From NCBI GenBank assembly GCA_050736615.1, contig JBOHWL010000136.1:16828-80827 (forward strand): a DNA stretch of 64,000 nucleotides, written 5' to 3'. The notes under the pieces are model-generated. The model ran no database searches and had not been told where the DNA came from. It was given only the letters and a program-made list of their open reading frames with translations. This DNA comes from Candidatus Binataceae bacterium (GTDB taxonomy: Bacteria > Desulfobacterota > Binatia > Binatales > Binataceae). Both the position numbers and the translations under genes were made by a program. Below are positions 2,780 through 33,767 of the stretch, piece after piece. Position 1 is the stretch's first letter. Each line of letters begins with the position of its first letter.

Positions 2780-3113
2780 AGCCTGGACCCCTCCTCATTC
2801 CGAATGACGTTCGTGCTTCGATTTTGGTTACAGTCACTATCATTGTCTTTGTAGCGAGCGAGCGAGCAGCTTCTGACCGGTTCTAATCAGCAGCAAGTAT
2901 GCCTTAGCAAAAGCAGTCAGGCGGTGCGGTAAAGCGTCTTTTAGCGAGTGTCAGCCGACGGTGAAAAAAAACTGTCGTTGACCAGCCATACCAGCCCGTG
3001 CGGCTCGTACGAAAGCGGCGAGACGATCTCAATCGGAATTAACGAACTTTAATGTTCTCGAGCGGGAGCGCTATGCTCGCAAATAAGACGGAATCAAGTA
3101 GGTGGTAGACAGC

Positions 3114-9775: not shown

Positions 9776-9891
9776 TGCGCCCTCTTGGCGGCCCGAGCAC
9801 CGAAAAACCAGCGCACTGTATGAACGTGGGCACTTTCAAAGATTCGGTGCTGGCCGCCTCACTAATTCGCCGCTCAAGGATAATCTGAAAA

Positions 9892-10010
9892 ATTAGTGGA
9901 CCTGTCAAGTATAGTATGGCCGATCGGCCGATCTGTCAAACGCGACAAACCATATTCTCTGGAAGAACTTGCGGAATTTTATGAATAATGGACCTAATTG
10001 GTCCACTAAT
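9892..10010. promoter_or_regulatory. isc promoter region with operator-like repeats: inverted ATTAGTGGACC pair plus an imperfect ~25-bp palindrome
   Basis: ATTAGTGGACC occurs at 9892-9902. Its exact reverse complement GGTCCACTAAT occurs at 10000-10010. The second copy is embedded in TAATGGACCTAATTGGTCCACTAAT (9985-10010), with arms GGACC/GGTCC around TAATT. The region is AT-rich, lies upstream of iscS, and no iscR gene is present. Confidence 0.35.
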
Positions 10011-10116
10011 CAAATCATAAAGGCTTGTCAATGAAAATTGTGACCTTACCGATTGGTCAGAACGAAAATAAAACGGGTGCAAGGCTAATTCGAGAAACGC
10101 ATGCCGGACAGGCCGG

Positions 10117-20798: not shown

Positions 20799-21956
20799 TC
20801 ACTGATTGGATAGAATCAAAGTCGCGCCCGAATGACGCGTGCCGAGCGCGCCGCCGGTGCCATGCACGAGCGCGGTATTGCAATCCTTGACCTGGCGCGG
20901 GCCGCATTCGCCGCGCAACTGTTTGACCGCCTCGATTACCAGGAAGATGCCGCGCATGCCGGGATGATTGGAAGACAGCCCGCCGCCGTCGGTATTGATT
21001 GGCAACTCGCCGTCGAAGCGCAGGCGTCCGCCAGTGACGAAGGCGCCGCCCTCGCCGCGTTTGCAAAAGCCCAGATTCTCCAGCGTCGATAGCACGGTGA
21101 TGGTAAAGGAATCGTAGATCATCGCCATGTCGATGTCCGCCGCGGTGGCGCCGGCGCGTTCGAAAGCGAGCCGTCCGGACTGCGCGGCGGCAATCTCAAG
21201 AAAATCGCGCTGTCCGCGTGCCGCATGCCGCACCGTTTCACCCGCGCCCAGGATATAGACGGGCTGCTTTTTTAAATCGCGCGCGCGCTCGGCGGAGGTC
21301 ACCACCAGCGCGCCGCCGCCATCACTGATGATACAGCAGTCCAGCAGATGGAGCGGCGAGGAAATCACGCGCGAGGCCAGCACGTCCTCGACCGTTATCG
21401 GGTCGCGGTATTTGGCCACCGGATTCATCGAAGCGTGCAGGCGCATGGTGACCGCGATTTCCGCCAGTTGTTCAGCCGTGGTGCCGTAGTCATGCATATG
21501 GCGTTGCGCGATCATCGCGTACGCGCCCACCGTGGTCGGGCCGAAGGGAATCTCATACTGATCACAGATGTCACCGCCGCCACCGCCGCCGGTGCCTATC
21601 GCGAAGCGTTGCGAAGCGGCGGTCGAGCCGTACACGACCACGGCGACTTCGCACAATCCGGAATTGATCGCCGCGGCGGCGTGCGCGGTTTGAGCCACGA
21701 ATGACGAACCGCCGATAGAAGTCGAGTCCACGTAATTGGGCGTCAGGTTCAGGTAATCGCAGAAGCTGACGATGCCCATTCCGCCCATGCCCATCCCGGT
21801 CGTACAGAGGCCGTCCACATCCTTGATCGTGAGGCCGGCGTCCGCGAGCGCGCCTCTGATGCTCTCAGCCATAATCTGGAACATGGTCTTGTCGGGCGCG
21901 TAGCGGCTTGGATGCTCATATACGCCAACCAAAGCGGTCTTGCGGCTTAAACTCAT
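20799..21956 (-). CDS. thiolase-like protein, SCP-x/nonspecific lipid-transfer-protein type (putative retro-aldolase or thiolase)
   Basis: Thiolase fold with catalytic Cys context (GLCTTGMG), a glycine-rich loop and C-terminal HGTGGALG. Confidence 0.8.
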   Translation of the reverse strand: MSLSRKTALVGVYEHPSRYAPDKTMFQIMAESIRGALADAGLTIKDVDGLCTTGMGMGGMGIVSFCDYLNLTPNYVDSTSIGGSSFVAQTAHAAAAINSGLCEVAVVVYGSTAASQRFAIGTGGGGGGDICDQYEIPFGPTTVGAYAMIAQRHMHDYGTTAEQLAEIAVTMRLHASMNPVAKYRDPITVEDVLASRVISSPLHLLDCCIISDGGGALVVTSAERARDLKKQPVYILGAGETVRHAARGQRDFLEIAAAQSGRLAFERAGATAADIDMAMIYDSFTITVLSTLENLGFCKRGEGGAFVTGGRLRFDGELPINTDGGGLSSNHPGMRGIFLVIEAVKQLRGECGPRQVKDCNTALVHGTGGALGTRHSGATLILSNQ

Positions 21957-21966
21957 GCTGCGCTCC

Positions 21967-22893
21967 CTAATTCAATTCGGCGAGAAAACTCTCGATGGCG
22001 GCGTTGACCTCCCGCGGCCGCTCGGTGGTGAGATGGTGCGCGGCGTCGCGGATGAGCTGGAGGCGTGCGCCACGAATCCTGCTCTTGATGAACTCGGCAT
22101 GCATCGGCGGCGTGATGAGGTCGTCGGCGCCCGCCAGAATCAGCGTTGGCGCGGCAATGTCCGCGATGTTGTCGCGCAAGTCGGCCTGGCGGCAGGCGAC
22201 CACATCGGTGTACCGCACGCGCGGATCGGTGCGAATCTGCTCGCCCCAGCCCTCACGCACCACATCGAAGCTTTCCTTGATGGTTTTCGGGGCGTAACCG
22301 TCGGTGGTAAACGCTTGCGGTGCGCGGCCCATGGTTACGTTCCAAAGGGCGCGCACAAGCTCTTCGGGAACTTCGAACTTGGCCGCCGTCGCCATCGCGA
22401 TCAGCGCGTGAGCGCGTTTTGGATAGCGCAACGCGAAATCCATCGCGACCGCGCCGCCCATTGAACGTCCCGCTATCACCGCCGCTTCGATCCCAAGGCT
22501 ATCCATGAAGGCGGCAACGAACCCGGTATAATCGTGGAGCGTGCGCAATCCCTCGACCCCCGACGTGCGCCCGTGACCCGGCAGGTCGAGCGCAATGGGG
22601 CTGTGATTGGCCGCGAGCGCCTCTAGTTGATAGTGCCACTCATGGCCGTTGGACCCGGCGGCGTGTACGAAAATGAGCTTGCGGCCTCGGGAAAAATCCG
22701 GGGCCACATCAGGCAAGGTCGTCCCCCCCTCGTAATAATAGTAGGTGGCGTAACCCTGCACCTCCACGTACTTGGTCGGCATCGCACCCAAAACTCCCAC
22801 GCGTTGATTGAGGTTAGCTATGCGGTTTAGGCCGCAATTGTCAAACGTGTCAAAGGCCGATTTATCCGCAAGCTCGCCGGGTTCGATTTTCAT
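21967..22893 (-). CDS. alpha/beta-fold hydrolase
   Basis: Start reassigned to ATG 22893 (MKIEPGELAD). GRSMGG nucleophile elbow, HG oxyanion region (FVHAAGSNGHEW), C-terminal DAAHHL. Confidence 0.7.
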   Translation of the reverse strand: MKIEPGELADKSAFDTFDNCGLNRIANLNQRVGVLGAMPTKYVEVQGYATYYYYEGGTTLPDVAPDFSRGRKLIFVHAAGSNGHEWHYQLEALAANHSPIALDLPGHGRTSGVEGLRTLHDYTGFVAAFMDSLGIEAAVIAGRSMGGAVAMDFALRYPKRAHALIAMATAAKFEVPEELVRALWNVTMGRAPQAFTTDGYAPKTIKESFDVVREGWGEQIRTDPRVRYTDVVACRQADLRDNIADIAAPTLILAGADDLITPPMHAEFIKSRIRGARLQLIRDAAHHLTTERPREVNAAIESFLAELN

Positions 22894-23083
22894 TGCACCT
22901 GGCGCGCCGGCGTGCTGACGGATGCGGCCGCTTCGGACAAAGAAGAACCGTCGGTCGTCTGCCTGCCGCCTCAACCGTGCCGATTGGGGCGGAGTCGAAT
23001 CTTTACGGGTTTTAAAACTTCGCGATCGGCCATTGTCATCGCAAATGGCCGCTCGCGCTCCCCCGGCGCTTACGGATGTCCAC

Positions 23084-23320
23084 TCATCGCCGCTTGCGCC
23101 GTCCACGGGCGACAATGGTTGGAGCGCCAGACGCCTGCGTTTTTTCCCACTGCTCGATAGCGGCGCGATTGAAGCGCCAATTGCTGCCGACGCGGAATCC
23201 AGGCAGCCGCCCTTGGCGCAACAGCCGATATATAGTCGTGGGATGTACGCGCAGATGGTCCGACAGTTCCTTAATCGTAAAAATTTCGTCCTGCGCCGTC
23301 ATAGAAGATTGGGAATTCAT
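23084..23320 (-). CDS. excisionase-family (MerR-like) helix-turn-helix DNA-binding protein
   Basis: FTIKELSDHLRVHPTTIYRLLRQGRLPGFRVGSNWRFNRAAIEQW matches the excisionase/AlpA-type HTH_17 pattern. Heads the hydrolase/thiolase operon on the minus strand. Confidence 0.65.
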   Translation of the reverse strand: MNSQSSMTAQDEIFTIKELSDHLRVHPTTIYRLLRQGRLPGFRVGSNWRFNRAAIEQWEKTQASGAPTIVARGRRKRR

Positions 23321-23955
23321 TTTGGTCAGAGCCGCTCGCGGGTAACTGTCAGGTTCGCTTACTATGTTAATACCGCTGATTCAGCCTCTTCCGCGCGCAA
23401 CACGAAGTCAAGATGCAACTGTGCATAAAACGGGTCTGAATCCATCAGCACGAAGCTACCAACTGTTCTTGAATGTATTAATTGTATACTAACGCGAATC
23501 ACTGAGTATGTTGCCGCACGCAAGCGTTACGAGAAGCCTAATGCTTAAAGATAGGCGATATTTTGCCCTATTATGCCGATTGGGCCGTCAAATATTAGAT
23601 TTGGCGACGATCTCGGCGCCTTTTGATCGCCGCGGCTGATCCCTGGACCGCTCGCTCAGGGTCTTTATCTGATAATTTTGCGGCTGGCTTGAGGACATTG
23701 TTAGCGCGATCGCGCCGATGGTTGGTCAGATATGCACAGGCGTATCAACTCGAAGTATACAAATATTGTCATTTAGTATGCGCAATGGTGATGCGCTGAC
23801 AGTAATTGCGCATTGACGAAATATGGCGTCGAAATTTGCCAAAATGACGGGATTCCTACTTGGAGAATTGCACCTTCGGCTTTGTTTCCGCGGCCTTTTC
23901 CAAGAAGCGACGCCAGCGTGATTTCCATCGCAAGCAGGCGGTCATTCGTCCTTGA

Positions 23956-23985
23956 TTGACTAAGGTCGCGCCGCCTTCCTATGAT
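23956..23985 (+). promoter_or_regulatory. sigma-70-like promoter for the 24011 gene
   Basis: TTGACT (23956-23961), 18-bp spacer, TATGAT (23980-23985), then GGAGGAAG RBS (23995-24002) and GTG 24011. Lies in a 690-bp AT-rich intergenic stretch. Confidence 0.4.
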
Positions 23986-24010
23986 CCGGGCCACGGAGGA
24001 AGATTGTTAA

Positions 24011-24544
24011 GTGCGAATGTTCGTTCCACCTATTGCTCAACGCCGGGAAATGGACCGCAATCTTGCACGTTTTTTCCGCGAGCATCGTATTTCCACTTTT
24101 CGCCGCGCGGTGTCGAATTTCTGCCGCTATTACAACGTTAAAGCTCCTCGTATCGAGTGGTACGAATATATCGATTGGGGTAAGACGGCTGGCAAAACCT
24201 TCGAGGACGGCCGTATCCATCTGGTTCACCCCGAGAACTGGAAACGCGGCCGTATCTACAAAAGCGAGCGGATGTGGGTCCAGACGGTCTATCACGAGCT
24301 GGCGCACTATCTGTTTTGGACCGATGCCGAAGCCAAAGCCGAGGCTTTCACCCATCGGATGGTGCGCGGTCTGCGCCGGGTGATACCGCGGGCGGCGAGC
24401 GCGCGACTGCAAGTCCCGGCAGGTGCCGTGCCGCGGCCTTCGCGCGCGGGCTATCCGTCCAGTATGCGACCGCGAAGGGAAGCTCGGATCGCGGAGATCA
24501 AGCGCGGATCGCACGCCAGCGCCGCGCGGCGGCGGCATGCGTGA
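24011..24544 (+). CDS. putative zinc metallopeptidase-like protein (HExxH: YHELAHY), SprT/ImmA/WLM-like; C-terminal Arg/Ala-rich tail doubtful
   Basis: QTVYHELAHYLFWTD carries an HExxH motif with aromatic context. The last ~60 codons are low-complexity (Arg/Ala/Pro) and may be read-through. Confidence 0.45.
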   Translation: MRMFVPPIAQRREMDRNLARFFREHRISTFRRAVSNFCRYYNVKAPRIEWYEYIDWGKTAGKTFEDGRIHLVHPENWKRGRIYKSERMWVQTVYHELAHYLFWTDAEAKAEAFTHRMVRGLRRVIPRAASARLQVPAGAVPRPSRAGYPSSMRPRREARIAEIKRGSHASAARRRHA

Positions 24545-24587
24545 AATGCAACGGCAAGCCTTATGTCGCCGCGGGTTTTTTGGATAG

Positions 24588-25139
24588 GTGATGGCGCATA
24601 AGCCAAACGTCGAGAATCGTTGGTGGGTTGAAACCACCGTCAAGCGGCCCAAACAGGCAAAGGCGGAAGGCGACTTGCCGCAATTGCCAGTCGCAATGAG
24701 CTTCTATGCGGTCGCCAAGGATTACAGTCAGGACCGCGCGAAGGAAGATCTGACCGACAACAATCTGCGCATCGCGCGCGAGGCCAACCCGCCGCCGGGC
24801 GACTGGGTCTACGTGCCGATGACTGAAGATCATTATCCGCCCCGCTTGGTCAAACGGATCAAGGACGAATTCCGTCTGCCGCGCGAGGCCCGAGGCATTC
24901 TGCTTGATCACGGTCGTCTGGTGCGACTGCTCATCTGCGGCCCGCAACTCGAAGACTGGATGCTGGACGTGACAATGGGTGAGGAACCCTCGGTTGACGT
25001 TTACGTCTGGAGCACGATGTACCGTGAGCGGTTGTTTCGGCGCGCCGAAGAGGCCCTGCGGCTGGCGCACCAATGGGCGTTGAACCTGATTCAGAACCCA
25101 CCCCAGCGCGACGACCCTTTTCGTGGCGCGTTGCTCTGA
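24588..25139 (+). CDS. hypothetical protein
   Basis: 183-aa ORF with protein-like composition (Trp/Tyr-rich, mixed charge). It has the same strand and spacing as the 24011 gene. GTG 24588 or ATG 24591. Confidence 0.4.
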   Translation: MMAHKPNVENRWWVETTVKRPKQAKAEGDLPQLPVAMSFYAVAKDYSQDRAKEDLTDNNLRIAREANPPPGDWVYVPMTEDHYPPRLVKRIKDEFRLPREARGILLDHGRLVRLLICGPQLEDWMLDVTMGEEPSVDVYVWSTMYRERLFRRAEEALRLAHQWALNLIQNPPQRDDPFRGALL

Positions 25140-25201
25140 TACGTCCTTCAAACATTTGTTGATTGGCTGCGGCCGGCCTTGCCGCTGGGGAGCAACCCCT
25201 T

Positions 25202-25561
25202 TTATTCAACGACAATTGTCATTTTCATGGTCGTGTGGCCGATCCCGCGGTAGTGATCGCAAATCACCTTGAATGTCCCCGTGGTGGTGGGAGTGACGGT
25301 CACCATCGTAAGCCGCTCCGGCCGGATGTCGGTGTCGATTTTCAACGGCCGTGCAAAGAACCCATGCACCGCGTCCGTGCTGGTCAGTTGCAGCCGCACG
25401 GTCTCGCCTTTTTTGAGAATTATCTGACCGGGGCTGAATTGAAATCTGTGGGCCGTAATCTTCACGACCGGCGGCGGTGCCACGGTGTTCGCCCGTCCGA
25501 GCGCGGGGATTGCCAACGCGGCGGCGAAAGTGAACGCGCCGAGTGTTGTGGTCGGCCTCAT
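25202..25561 (-). CDS. secreted cupredoxin-like domain protein
   Basis: Signal peptide MRPTTTLGAFTFAAALAIPALG. Cupredoxin-type C-terminal ligand cluster VICDHYRGIGHTTMKM plus upstream His (AVHGFF). Confidence 0.55.
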   Translation of the reverse strand: MRPTTTLGAFTFAAALAIPALGRANTVAPPPVVKITAHRFQFSPGQIILKKGETVRLQLTSTDAVHGFFARPLKIDTDIRPERLTMVTVTPTTTGTFKVICDHYRGIGHTTMKMTIVVE

Positions 25562-26544
25562 GCGATTACTCCTGATTTGGCTAGTTGTTGCATTCCGCAG
25601 GTGCCCGAAAATTCACGGAGGCTGAGCTCGACGTCGCTGATCGTGAGCGCTGGACCGTCGCCGCTAACCTCTCGAATGCCGAGATTTTTGAATGGTTGAT
25701 GCGCATCGAAGGCGACTGGTTTGCGGTCGCCCGTTTGCGACGCATCAGGAAAGGCGAAGATCAGGGAACGGGCGGCATAATGGCGTGCGCGCCCGTCCTG
25801 ATGAAAATTGCGACGGTGAATATGGCCGTATAGCACCGTGACATTTTCATACGCCGCCAACGCCTTCATCACATCATCGCCGTCGCTGGTGAACCACTCC
25901 CATTCGGGTTTGAGATCGAACAGCGGCCTGTGCGTGAAAACGATAATCGGAGTGGCGAGCGGATAACGCGACAGGTCGCGTTTGAGCCACGCCAATTGTT
26001 CAGTCCCGACCTCCGGACGGCCGCGCGAAACGTTGTCGAGTGCGACGAAGTGGACGCCACGGTGATCGAATGAATAATGCGGTTCCCCGGAGTGCTCGCG
26101 GTACAGCTTGCCGCCGTCCAAAGCGGCATCGTTCTCGCCCGGAACCCATCGCAGTATCGGCACTTTGAGTCCGCTCGCGATTGATTTGAAGGTTCGCATC
26201 CGCGCGGCGTGAACTTCGCGGCTCTCGGCGTCATGCGTCAAATCGCCAGTGAAAATCACCAGCTCAGGCGCCTTAGGCATGCGCTTCACCATCTTTACGG
26301 CGCGCTCGAAAGCTTGCGTGCCGAGCGGGTCGGGCGGCCCATTGAAACCCACGTGCGTGTCGCTGAATTGCGCGAAGCTGAAGGAACCCGGCGCCTCGCC
26401 ATTCGAGGCGCGAAGCACCTGCTTGGCCATCGTGCCCGCCACCGATTTGCCCGCTAATGCGTTTCCCACCGTGTAAAGCGCCCCAATTCCGAGCGAAGTG
26501 CCGGCCACGCGCAAAAAAGAGCGCCGGTCGATTGGTTTGTTCAT
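25558..26544 (-). CDS. Tat-secreted metallophosphoesterase (calcineurin-like)
   Basis: Start reassigned to ATG 26544 (MNKPIDRRSFLRVAG, a twin-arginine motif), preceded by AAGGGG. Motifs GDLTHD, GENDAAL, GHIHRRNF. The listed 517-aa ORF adds a non-protein-like leader. Confidence 0.75.
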   Translation of the reverse strand: MNKPIDRRSFLRVAGTSLGIGALYTVGNALAGKSVAGTMAKQVLRASNGEAPGSFSFAQFSDTHVGFNGPPDPLGTQAFERAVKMVKRMPKAPELVIFTGDLTHDAESREVHAARMRTFKSIASGLKVPILRWVPGENDAALDGGKLYREHSGEPHYSFDHRGVHFVALDNVSRGRPEVGTEQLAWLKRDLSRYPLATPIIVFTHRPLFDLKPEWEWFTSDGDDVMKALAAYENVTVLYGHIHRRNFHQDGRARHYAARSLIFAFPDASQTGDRKPVAFDAHQPFKNLGIREVSGDGPALTISDVELSLREFSGTCGMQQLAKSGVIA

Positions 26545-26718: not shown

Positions 26719-27313
26719 TTGCTTAAGGGTGGAAGCCGATCCATCAAGGTGGATCATCGAGTGCCCGAACGTGATAACCCGGCGCGGTTCGAGCAGGCCG
26801 TTCTGCCGCATCTCGATGCCGCCTACAATCTGGCGCGATGGCTGATGCGCGACGATCACGACGCTCAGGACGCAGTGCAGGATGCGTGTGTGCGCGCACT
26901 GCGTTTTTTTGGGAGTTTGCGCGGCGGCGACAGCCGCGTATGGCTGCTGGCGATCGTGCGCAATGTTTGTTACACACGCCTGACCAGTGGCCGTGCGAGG
27001 GAGCATGACGCCAGCTTTGACGAGGAGCTGCACGCCACAGACACGGTCGCGGGTGATAATCCGGAACCTGCTGATGCGCGCGCGCGACGATCGTGCGCTC
27101 CTGCAAGCCATCGAAAATCCGCCAGCCGAGTATCGCGAGCCGCTGGTGTTACGCGAGCTGGAAGGGCTTTCCTATAAGCAAATAGCCGAAGTGGCGGCGA
27201 TGCCGATCGGCACCGTGATGCCACGCCTGGCGCGTGCGCGAAAACGGATAATGGCGGAGCTTCGCGTAATGGCGGAGCTTCGCGGCGTCGCCCGCAAAGG
27301 AGAGGTGGCGTGA
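26719..27313 (+). pseudogene. ECF (sigma-70 family) sigma factor interrupted by a frameshift near 27040-27070
   Basis: Region 2 (PHLDAAYNLARWLMRDDHDAQDAVQDACVRALRFF...LLAIVRNVCYTR) is in the 26719 frame up to ...VAGDNPE. Region 4 (NLLMRARDDRALLQAIENPPAEYREPLVLRELEGLSYKQIAEVAAMPIGTVMPRLARARKRI) is in the +1 frame, ORF 26987-27313. The two join as ...SNPENLML..., matching the RpoE layout. Confidence 0.6.
27250..27285 (+). repeat. 18-bp tandem duplication at the 3' end of the sigma factor gene
   Basis: aatggcggagcttcgcgt / aatggcggagcttcgcgg, 17/18 identical. Encodes MAELRV-MAELRG. Confidence 0.5.
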
Positions 27314-33269: not shown

Positions 33270-33767
33270 CGCTCCTCGCCTCTCTTCGAGGGCCGGCCCC
33301 GATCTTCCGGATGTGAAAGAGTCGTCCGCCTTGTGCCCCCGCCTTGACCCACTTCTATCGGACAGACGTGGTATATGTAGCGCAGTGTAAGCAAGTATTC
33401 AAGTCTCATAACATCTAGAATTATCATTTTTCATTTCAGATTGCCGCATGTTTTCAATTTGCTATCAAGTTCGATTCCATACAGCGTCCATAATATCAAA
33501 AGAGCTTGAATAAATCCCGGACGACGCAAAAGCAAGTAGAAAGGATGATAATGAGCAATGATAGGCGCTTGCACGAACGCTTATCAAATGAATCCTCTTG
33601 TTTGCACAAAAGAAGTCATGCCGACCGCGCCGGCCTGGAGCGCGCCGCACCGCACCTATGCTATTGTATACGAATCGCGCAATGGCTCGGATGTTATCGC
33701 GGGTGTGGGCGTCGAGGACGCGCCGGGTTGACGCGAGGGCAAGATCATCATCGCTGGGAAAGGTTGG

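Follow-up and report, generated by a model that had tools for sequence, protein, structure and literature searches.

A low-GC stretch of a Candidatus Binataceae chromosome is probably an ordinary divergent junction between an HTH_17 gene and a conserved HExxH/partner gene pair

Does a low-GC spacer beside an excisionase-type gene mark foreign DNA or the gap between two native transcription units? This question arose at positions 23,084 to 25,139 of a stretch of 64,000 nucleotides from a Candidatus Binataceae genome (assembly GCA_050736615.1, contig JBOHWL010000136.1; the whole stretch is called the window in the following). A gene for a small helix-turn-helix (HTH) protein lies there on the minus strand and, beyond a long spacer, two genes follow on the plus strand, one for a protein with an HExxH zinc-peptidase motif (a putative zincin) and one for a 182-aa protein, here called the partner. 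The original prediction, read from the sequence of the window, had taken the stretch for AT-rich accessory DNA, either the edge of a degenerate integrative element or a small defence or stress cassette. We consider it highly probable that the supposedly accessory stretch is an ordinary divergent intergenic junction, with two native units standing back to back and the pair constituting a core operon. Both transcription units are vertically inherited and point away from each other on a Binataceae chromosome. All coordinates are collected in Table 1.

The distribution of the gene pair bears most directly on this question. Top database matches of both plus-strand proteins came from Candidatus Binataceae or Binatia. 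In a census with one genome per species of the Genome Taxonomy Database (GTDB), the 182-aa protein was found in 146 species representatives; the 80 that were kept were metagenome-assembled genomes (MAGs) labelled Binataceae, Binatia or 'delta proteobacterium', save a few with other automatic labels. The HExxH gene stood directly upstream of the partner gene, on the same strand, in every locus with enough upstream flank; in two loci an insertion of about 1 kb lay between the two genes. A HMMER pass over 1.84 billion representatives returned only 77 clusters for the partner family, and the full-length distant members belonged to other Binatia lineages. In these, identity was down to 55-63% for the HExxH protein, whose orthologues start with MRM, and to 33-45% for the partner. 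Of the four distant genomes that were inspected, three (L088-L090) had the two genes next to each other with an overlap of 4-8 nt; L091, the fourth, had an adh_short gene in opposite orientation between them. The genes flanking the pair varied among genomes and coded for a CoA-transferase, ICMT, an ABC transporter, SmpB or a 150-aa orphan protein. Judged from these comparisons, the pair is core across the class Binatia and not accessory. Conserved synteny of the genes in relatives had been named at the outset as the finding that would speak against an accessory nature, and for the gene pair it is what we found.

Two observations on assemblies concern the same loci. In the closest relative, GCA_050736555.1 (L006/L007), an assembly break separates the two genes: one contig ends with the HExxH gene, and the partner gene begins 82 nt inside another. 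MAG JOPF038 (JASHPB01) carries two different copies of the pair on two contigs (L067 and L087), explained either by a paralogous duplicate or by a mixed bin.

The suggested edge of an integrative element found no backing in searches for marks of mobility. With tblastn, neither protein of the pair had a match among 72,556 plasmids and 50,697 phage genomes. A scan for tRNA and tmRNA genes found none in the 64-kb window, no meaningful flanking direct repeats were detected, and in the closest relative, which is syntenic, the genes annotated by Pfam over about 8 kb to the left and right included no integrase or transposase.

Base composition told more about the genome than about the stretch. The GC drop reported between 23,320 and 24,010 was confirmed, the spacer having a GC content of 0.491 as compared to 0.589 for the whole window, and the lowest 400-nt bin of the window was 23201-23600 (0.472). 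Yet other gaps free of open reading frames (ORFs) were equally low (0.475 at 9776-10116, 0.509 at 2780-3101 and 0.510 at 33270-33767, the last with a 300-nt minimum of 0.417 at 33311), and low GC is therefore the normal look of non-coding DNA in this genome, where intergenic DNA lies about 10 GC points under coding DNA. The only unusual trait of the spacer was its length. The accessory composition proposed for the genes did not hold for the pair either: the GC content at third codon positions (GC3) was 0.728 for the partner gene and 0.657 for the HExxH gene, both within about one standard deviation (sd) of the reference of 0.705 ± 0.051 (39 ORFs). The short HTH gene, at 0.608, was about 1.9 sd under the reference mean. 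The composition of the pair is native.

Similarity to the spacer was confined to the closest relative (L007, 78% over 500 nt) and the next closest (L005, first 116 nt), and no second copy of it occurred anywhere in the window. Its best-conserved part was the block 23321-23436, with about 95% identity in L007 and 84% in L005. Indels with respect to these relatives were not multiples of three. Poor conservation of the central spacer and these non-triplet indels led us to reject spacer ORFs of 53, 58 and 73 aa as genes, and an Rfam scan of 22000-26000 at E<=1 matched no family. The 690 bp are accounted for by the extended AT-rich sequence that usually precedes the HTH gene, placed next to a short promoter region of the pair; upstream gaps of HTH orthologues had a median of 308 nt and GC contents of 0.45-0.55. 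The lesson is that a low-GC gap beside an excisionase-type HTH gene is insufficient for calling an island.

Which signals, then, start the pair? The promoter TTGACT-18-TATGAT, predicted beforehand in the spacer, was recovered exactly. By count such sites were not above chance (two, compared to 1.6 ± 1.3 in shuffles), and the pattern TTGAC[TCG]-18-TAnnAT was conserved in 74 of 84 related loci, with the -10 element 23-54 nt (median 32) before the start codon. The HExxH gene has a conserved start, GTG-CGN-ATG. Over 69 distinct sequences, information content peaked in both hexamers, in a CTnC immediately 5' of the -10 element and in a T-rich patch 5' of the -35 element, but nowhere else, and no operator-like element was conserved in the promoter region of the pair. 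From these sequence features we would expect the operon to be expressed constitutively, in a housekeeping manner, and strongly.

The HExxH ORF, the reality of which had been left to frame re-analysis, is a genuine gene. It contains the motif YHELAHY (HELAH codons 24293-24307), belongs to a family of 1092 homologues, and the MRM with which homologues begin supports the GTG at 24011 as its start. The protein consists of a conserved core of about 120 aa (24011-24379) and a variable polycationic tail (24380-24541). Across the family, tails had a median of 69 aa with 32% R+K, 1.6% D+E and a pI of about 12, and were rich in A, G, P and S. In 104 sequences H95, E96 and H99, an Asp six residues past H99, and also a W and an E were invariant, as was HELAH as a whole, which reads HEMGH in distant orthologues and retains the catalytic HExxH pattern. 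The motif falls within a predicted helix (residues 84-101), and a further segment of the core, W-E-Y-I-D-W-G-K-T-A-G-K-T...G-R-I-H-L-V-H-P-E-N-W, was invariant or nearly so. By its sequence, the HExxH protein probably works as a metalloprotease.

Its family is an unnamed one. Pfam, NCBIfam, PHROGs and PADLOC gave no significant family for the HExxH protein, and a sequence-profile search of the PDB gave no match. The likeness to SprT, ImmA or WLM peptidases claimed previously held at the level of the motif only. For the window protein, SprT-like (PF10263) scored 13.5 bits, under the gathering threshold of 25.6; weak SprT-like matches were seen in 38 of the 104 members (best E 0.024), and distant orthologues reached 14-17 bits. 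ImmA/IrrE (Peptidase_M78), DUF45/YgjP and WLM were unmatched by the window protein at E<=10, by the 104 members at E<=1 and by the distant orthologues. Other sub-threshold matches were to Peptidase_M10 in 18 of the 104 members and, once, to MPTase-PolyVal.

SprT-like zincins of the Spartan-Wss1 type are DNA-dependent proteases of DNA-protein crosslinks. The window protein resembles them in being a small cytoplasmic HExxH domain, in the pattern 'W..G.T.G.t....I.L....(helix)HExxH' (the weak Pfam alignments span profile positions 30-79) and in a nucleic-acid-binding appendage, implied here by the tail of pI ~12. It differs in its family scores of 13-17 bits, as compared to the threshold of 25.6, and in that no solved structure was matched by sequence. 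It also lacks a Zn-ribbon or any other DNA-binding domain, and its tail is free of Cys. The candidate third metal ligand is the invariant Asp at +6, a spacing as in metzincins or snapalysin, and not a distal His. Finally, the window protein is always accompanied by a dedicated partner gene.

The partner had been predicted as a 183-aa protein of unknown family. The ORF is real, but most likely codes for 182 aa from the ATG at 24591: hundreds of homologues, with 74-95% identity, have a constant length of 182 aa. Pfam, NCBIfam, PHROGs and PADLOC again yielded no significant family, and a profile search of the PDB returned one chance match (E=1.2). Residues 1-47 are conserved in sequence yet predicted to be disordered, and they contain the motif RWW[VI][DE], the two tryptophans of which are invariant even in relatives with 30-40% identity. 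Residues 50-170 were modelled with pLDDT >90 as a domain of alpha-beta-alpha-beta5-alpha topology. Fold matches of this model were PsiB, AcrIIA11, TriTu, DddI and CdiI, that is, inhibitors and immunity proteins, and according to the model the partner has a PsiB-like alpha/beta fold. The likeness stops at the fold. Identity to PsiB, the plasmid SOS-inhibition protein (PDB 3NCT), and to AcrIIA11 is 7-9%, with Pfam and NCBIfam unmatched; the partner gene is chromosomal and core and does not lie in a plasmid leading region or a phage; and the partner carries the additional conserved N-terminal RWW segment. It is neither a member of the PsiB family by sequence nor encoded in a plasmid leading region as PsiB is. 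Two distant members, P0266 and P0273, are longer by 120-210 aa at the N-terminus, an extension in which Arg, Ser and Lys abound, and have 'EDWREPE' in place of RWW. From these sequences, a polycationic segment seems able to sit on either of the two proteins.

What could such a pair do? We take it as a two-gene operon that is driven by the near-consensus housekeeping promoter and translated from the GGAGG site and the conserved GTG start. Its first gene encodes the HExxH zincin core of about 120 aa, remotely SprT-like but of a family without a name, and joined to it a disordered polycationic tail of about 55-70 aa. The second encodes the 182-aa partner with its invariant N-terminal RWW motif and PsiB-like domain. 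The tail might tether the metalloprotease to a polyanion, be it DNA, RNA or the ribosome. The partner, possibly made in step with the protease and in stoichiometric amounts, as the gene overlap in distant relatives would suggest, may bind it as an inhibitor or as a specificity or adaptor subunit, and the RWW segment could be the contact or a pseudo-substrate. We hold only tentatively that the protease is tethered to nucleic acid in this way and regulated by its partner. More speculative still is a wider reading, to which we would give a rather low probability: that the pair constitutes an undescribed housekeeping system specific to Binatia, in which a minimal zincin, tethered to DNA or RNA by a histone-like polycationic tail, is gated through RWW by a PsiB-fold partner and serves crosslink proteolysis of the Spartan/Wss1 kind or the quality control of nucleoid or ribosome. 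No description of the HExxH/182-aa pair was found in the literature on PsiB, SprT-like proteins, AcrIIA11 and Binatota. Uncultured phyla have many conserved operons of hypothetical genes, and the function proposed for this one is deduced. The pair nonetheless defines two orphan families, without Pfam, NCBIfam, PHROG or PADLOC model, that form a conserved operon throughout the uncultured class Binatia. With its tail of pI 12 and a PsiB-fold partner of its own, the protease is a candidate for proteolysis associated with nucleic acids, in a phylum for which no genetic system exists.

The same two proteins could be read as a toxin-antitoxin or toxin-immunity cassette, that is, a defence or stress module in which the protease is the toxin and the PsiB-like partner neutralises it. 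The genes are small, co-directional and overlapping in distant relatives, the partner fold resembles inhibitors and immunity proteins, and a few homologues are labelled automatically as 'YD repeat-containing protein' by JGI. Distant zincin relatives also exist in viruses: the zincin core matched three of 2.9 million IMG/VR contigs with 27-33% identity (L172 2989-3369, L173 2992-3366, and L174), the best match being a tail-less homologue of the whole core (hhalign probability 98.7%, E 2e-16). In L172 and L173 the gene after the viral zincin codes for an unrelated DUF6899 protein and not for a member of the 182-aa family. Against such a cassette, the pair is core and vertically inherited across Binatia, with 75-95% identity within the family, where toxin modules would show a patchy, mobile distribution and known families. 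Its promoter is housekeeping-like without operator signal, its GC3 is native, its neighbours are housekeeping genes, and neither protein had a match in PADLOC or Pfam or a homologue on plasmids or phage genomes, which leaves the defence or stress cassette of the original prediction without support from these sources. An inhibitor-like control of a housekeeping protease would account for the same fold data. We regard a toxin cassette as improbable.

On the other side of the spacer, the HTH protein was confirmed as excisionase-type, as predicted, by HTH_17 of Pfam (1.3e-15; 57.8 bits, cut-off 27) and by TIGR01764 'excise' (1.1e-13; 51.3 bits, cut-off 28.8); it also matched phage excisionase PHROGs. 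The AlpA part of that assignment did not hold, AlpA giving no match. Membership of the MADS defence system was not borne out, since the score against NCBIfam MAD1 was 58.2 bits, under the cut-off of 80, and PADLOC matched mad1 only. BldC scored 16.6 bits with a cut-off of 77. The likely start is M7 at 23302, as called in L007. Like small HTH_17 proteins of the BldC, Xis or TorI type, the window protein is a single HTH_17 domain of 72-78 aa, but it has no integrase partner and its gene is conserved upstream of a beta-oxidation-type operon.

This linkage came from a protein-guided scan of metagenome contigs, which yielded 80 loci with HTH orthologues of 65-89% identity, 62 of them informative, with a downstream flank of 700 nt or more. 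An alpha/beta-hydrolase gene followed on the same strand in 44 of these 62, with a median gap of 237 nt, and wherever the flank was long enough a thiolase gene came next. In the window the hydrolase is the first enzyme gene of a hydrolase-thiolase-ChsH2-PHP-MaoC operon; a listed hydrolase ORF reaching 23115 was ruled out as an over-extension because orthologues have 271 aa. The fallback of the original prediction, an HTH protein regulating the adjacent acyl-CoA operon, thereby gained support. To judge from this gene order, the HTH_17 protein most likely regulates the hydrolase-thiolase-ChsH2-MaoC operon, which would serve a beta-oxidation of lipids or sterol-type compounds. The HTH gene would be transcribed from a promoter of its own, TTGACT-17-GAGGCT, and be followed by a terminator-like hairpin and then by the hydrolase operon. 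The putative promoter lies within the conserved block 23321-23436, and TTGAC[AT]-17-GAnnCT was found at the same distance upstream of 44 of 73 HTH orthologues, which is suggestive of promoter activity. An exact-pattern scan of metagenomes for the block conserved upstream of the HTH gene gave no match.

Some points weigh against the picture drawn for the two units. With a pLDDT of 69 the structure model of the zincin is a low-confidence one, and fold searches with it gave no guidance. The hydrolase gene was absent downstream of the HTH gene in 18 of the 62 informative loci, and the -10 element GAGGCT of the proposed HTH promoter is non-canonical.

The HTH_17 protein might also be a dedicated, divergently transcribed regulator of the HExxH operon. 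The divergent layout with a shared spacer is kept in three genomes, the window and its two closest relatives (L007 of GCA_050736555.1 and L005), and the Binataceae genomes L018 (6103-6285) and L079 (6098-6280) each have, about 1.5 kb beyond the downstream end of the pair, an HTH_17 paralogue with 54% identity to the HTH protein of the window. Pairs of ImmA/IrrE (COG2856, Peptidase_M78) with an HTH repressor are similar in so far as the HExxH gene adjoins an HTH gene in the window. They differ in that M78 was unmatched even at E<=10, the window HTH is HTH_17 and not Xre-type, and the adjacency is limited to the three genomes. In none of the 80 metagenomic HTH loci was the HExxH gene within 3 kb, more than 70 loci of the pair have no upstream HTH gene, and, as said above, the promoter region of the pair holds no conserved operator. 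Such a role is very unlikely. Least likely of all, and close to negligible, is a degraded edge of an integrative or mobile element with the HTH gene as a leftover excisionase and the spacer as foreign DNA: the excisionase-type matches of the HTH protein to TIGR01764 and PHROGs, the low GC of the spacer and the GC3 of the HTH gene would fit it, but tRNA, integrase and flanking repeats were missing in the places searched, the spacer occurs once in the window, with a GC content equal to that of other intergenic gaps, and dozens of metagenomic loci show the HTH orthologues in stable linkage with one and the same catabolic operon.

Table 1. Features of the junction and its surroundings; positions are those of the window.
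Feature	Position	Strand	Remarks
Thiolase gene	20799-21956	minus	
Alpha/beta-hydrolase gene, 271 aa	21967-22782	minus	Pfam Abhydrolase_6/1 at 1e-22; orthologues of 271 aa
Terminator-like hairpin directly past the HTH stop codon	23021-23057	minus	14-nt arms, then U-rich AAGUUUUAAAA
HTH_17 gene (excisionase-type / MerR-like winged helix)	23084-23320	minus	78 aa from ATG 23320, likelier 72 aa from ATG 23302
Divergent intergenic spacer, 690 bp, non-coding	23321-24010		GC 0.491
Putative HTH promoter	23411..23383	minus	-35 TTGACT (23411..23406), 17 nt, -10 GAGGCT (23388..23383); predicted transcription start near 23376
Perfect 9-bp inverted repeat, 18-nt loop	23778-23786, 23805-23813		Arms ATGCGCAAT and ATTGCGCAT
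Sigma-70-type promoter of the HExxH/182-aa operon	23956-23961, 23980-23985	plus	TTGACT, 18 nt, TATGAT; predicted transcription start near 23992
GGAGG ribosome-binding site	23995-23999	plus	11 nt before GTG start; conserved in Binataceae loci
HExxH zincin gene, 177 aa	24011-24544	plus	GTG start
GC-rich hairpin, then U6 (UUUUUU)	24516-24582	plus	Spans end of HExxH ORF and 43-nt gap before partner gene
Partner gene, 182 aa	24591-25139	plus	ATG start; alternative GTG start 24588

Three potential hairpins accompany these genes. The inverted repeat announced with 10 bp at about 23781-23818 is present, with arms of 9 bp and slightly shifted (Table 1). In the closest relative seven of its nine positions are kept, and in the next closest it is absent. 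Its folding was no better than that of shuffled sequences (z -0.06 on the plus and -1.74 on the minus strand). A role as an RNA hairpin or terminator was rejected because of this, of the absence of a U-run after it and of its poor conservation; the repeat is probably due to chance, or else a minor operator. The hairpin past the HTH gene, with a fold energy of -21.2 kcal/mol (z -2.17) and a U-rich tract after it, may act as a terminator. The third, between the genes of the pair (-34.4 kcal/mol, z -1.6), occupies a site where other genomes show a 2-nt gap or a gene overlap. Specific to the subclade of this genome, it may be an attenuator setting the ratio of both proteins, as far as its sequence tells.

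Beyond the pair, a cupredoxin gene and a metallophosphoesterase gene follow on the minus strand. The 150-aa orphan mentioned above, a protein without Pfam family, is encoded near the pair in L002 (6558-7010), L005 (6727-7179) and 53 other loci, on the opposite strand where genes were called. Where loci are annotated, its gene and gcpE/ispG diverge from a common intergenic gap, to which the low-GC gap 33270-33767 of the window may correspond. It was considered as a third gene of the module and set aside: 55 of 89 loci have it, but the distant Binatia loci lack it, and none lies close to the pair in the window. Further downstream, at 27249-27284, an 18-nt perfect tandem duplication (TAATGGCGGAGCTTCGCG, twice) near the 3' end of an ORF for an ECF sigma factor gives rise to a repeated MAELR(V/G) peptide.

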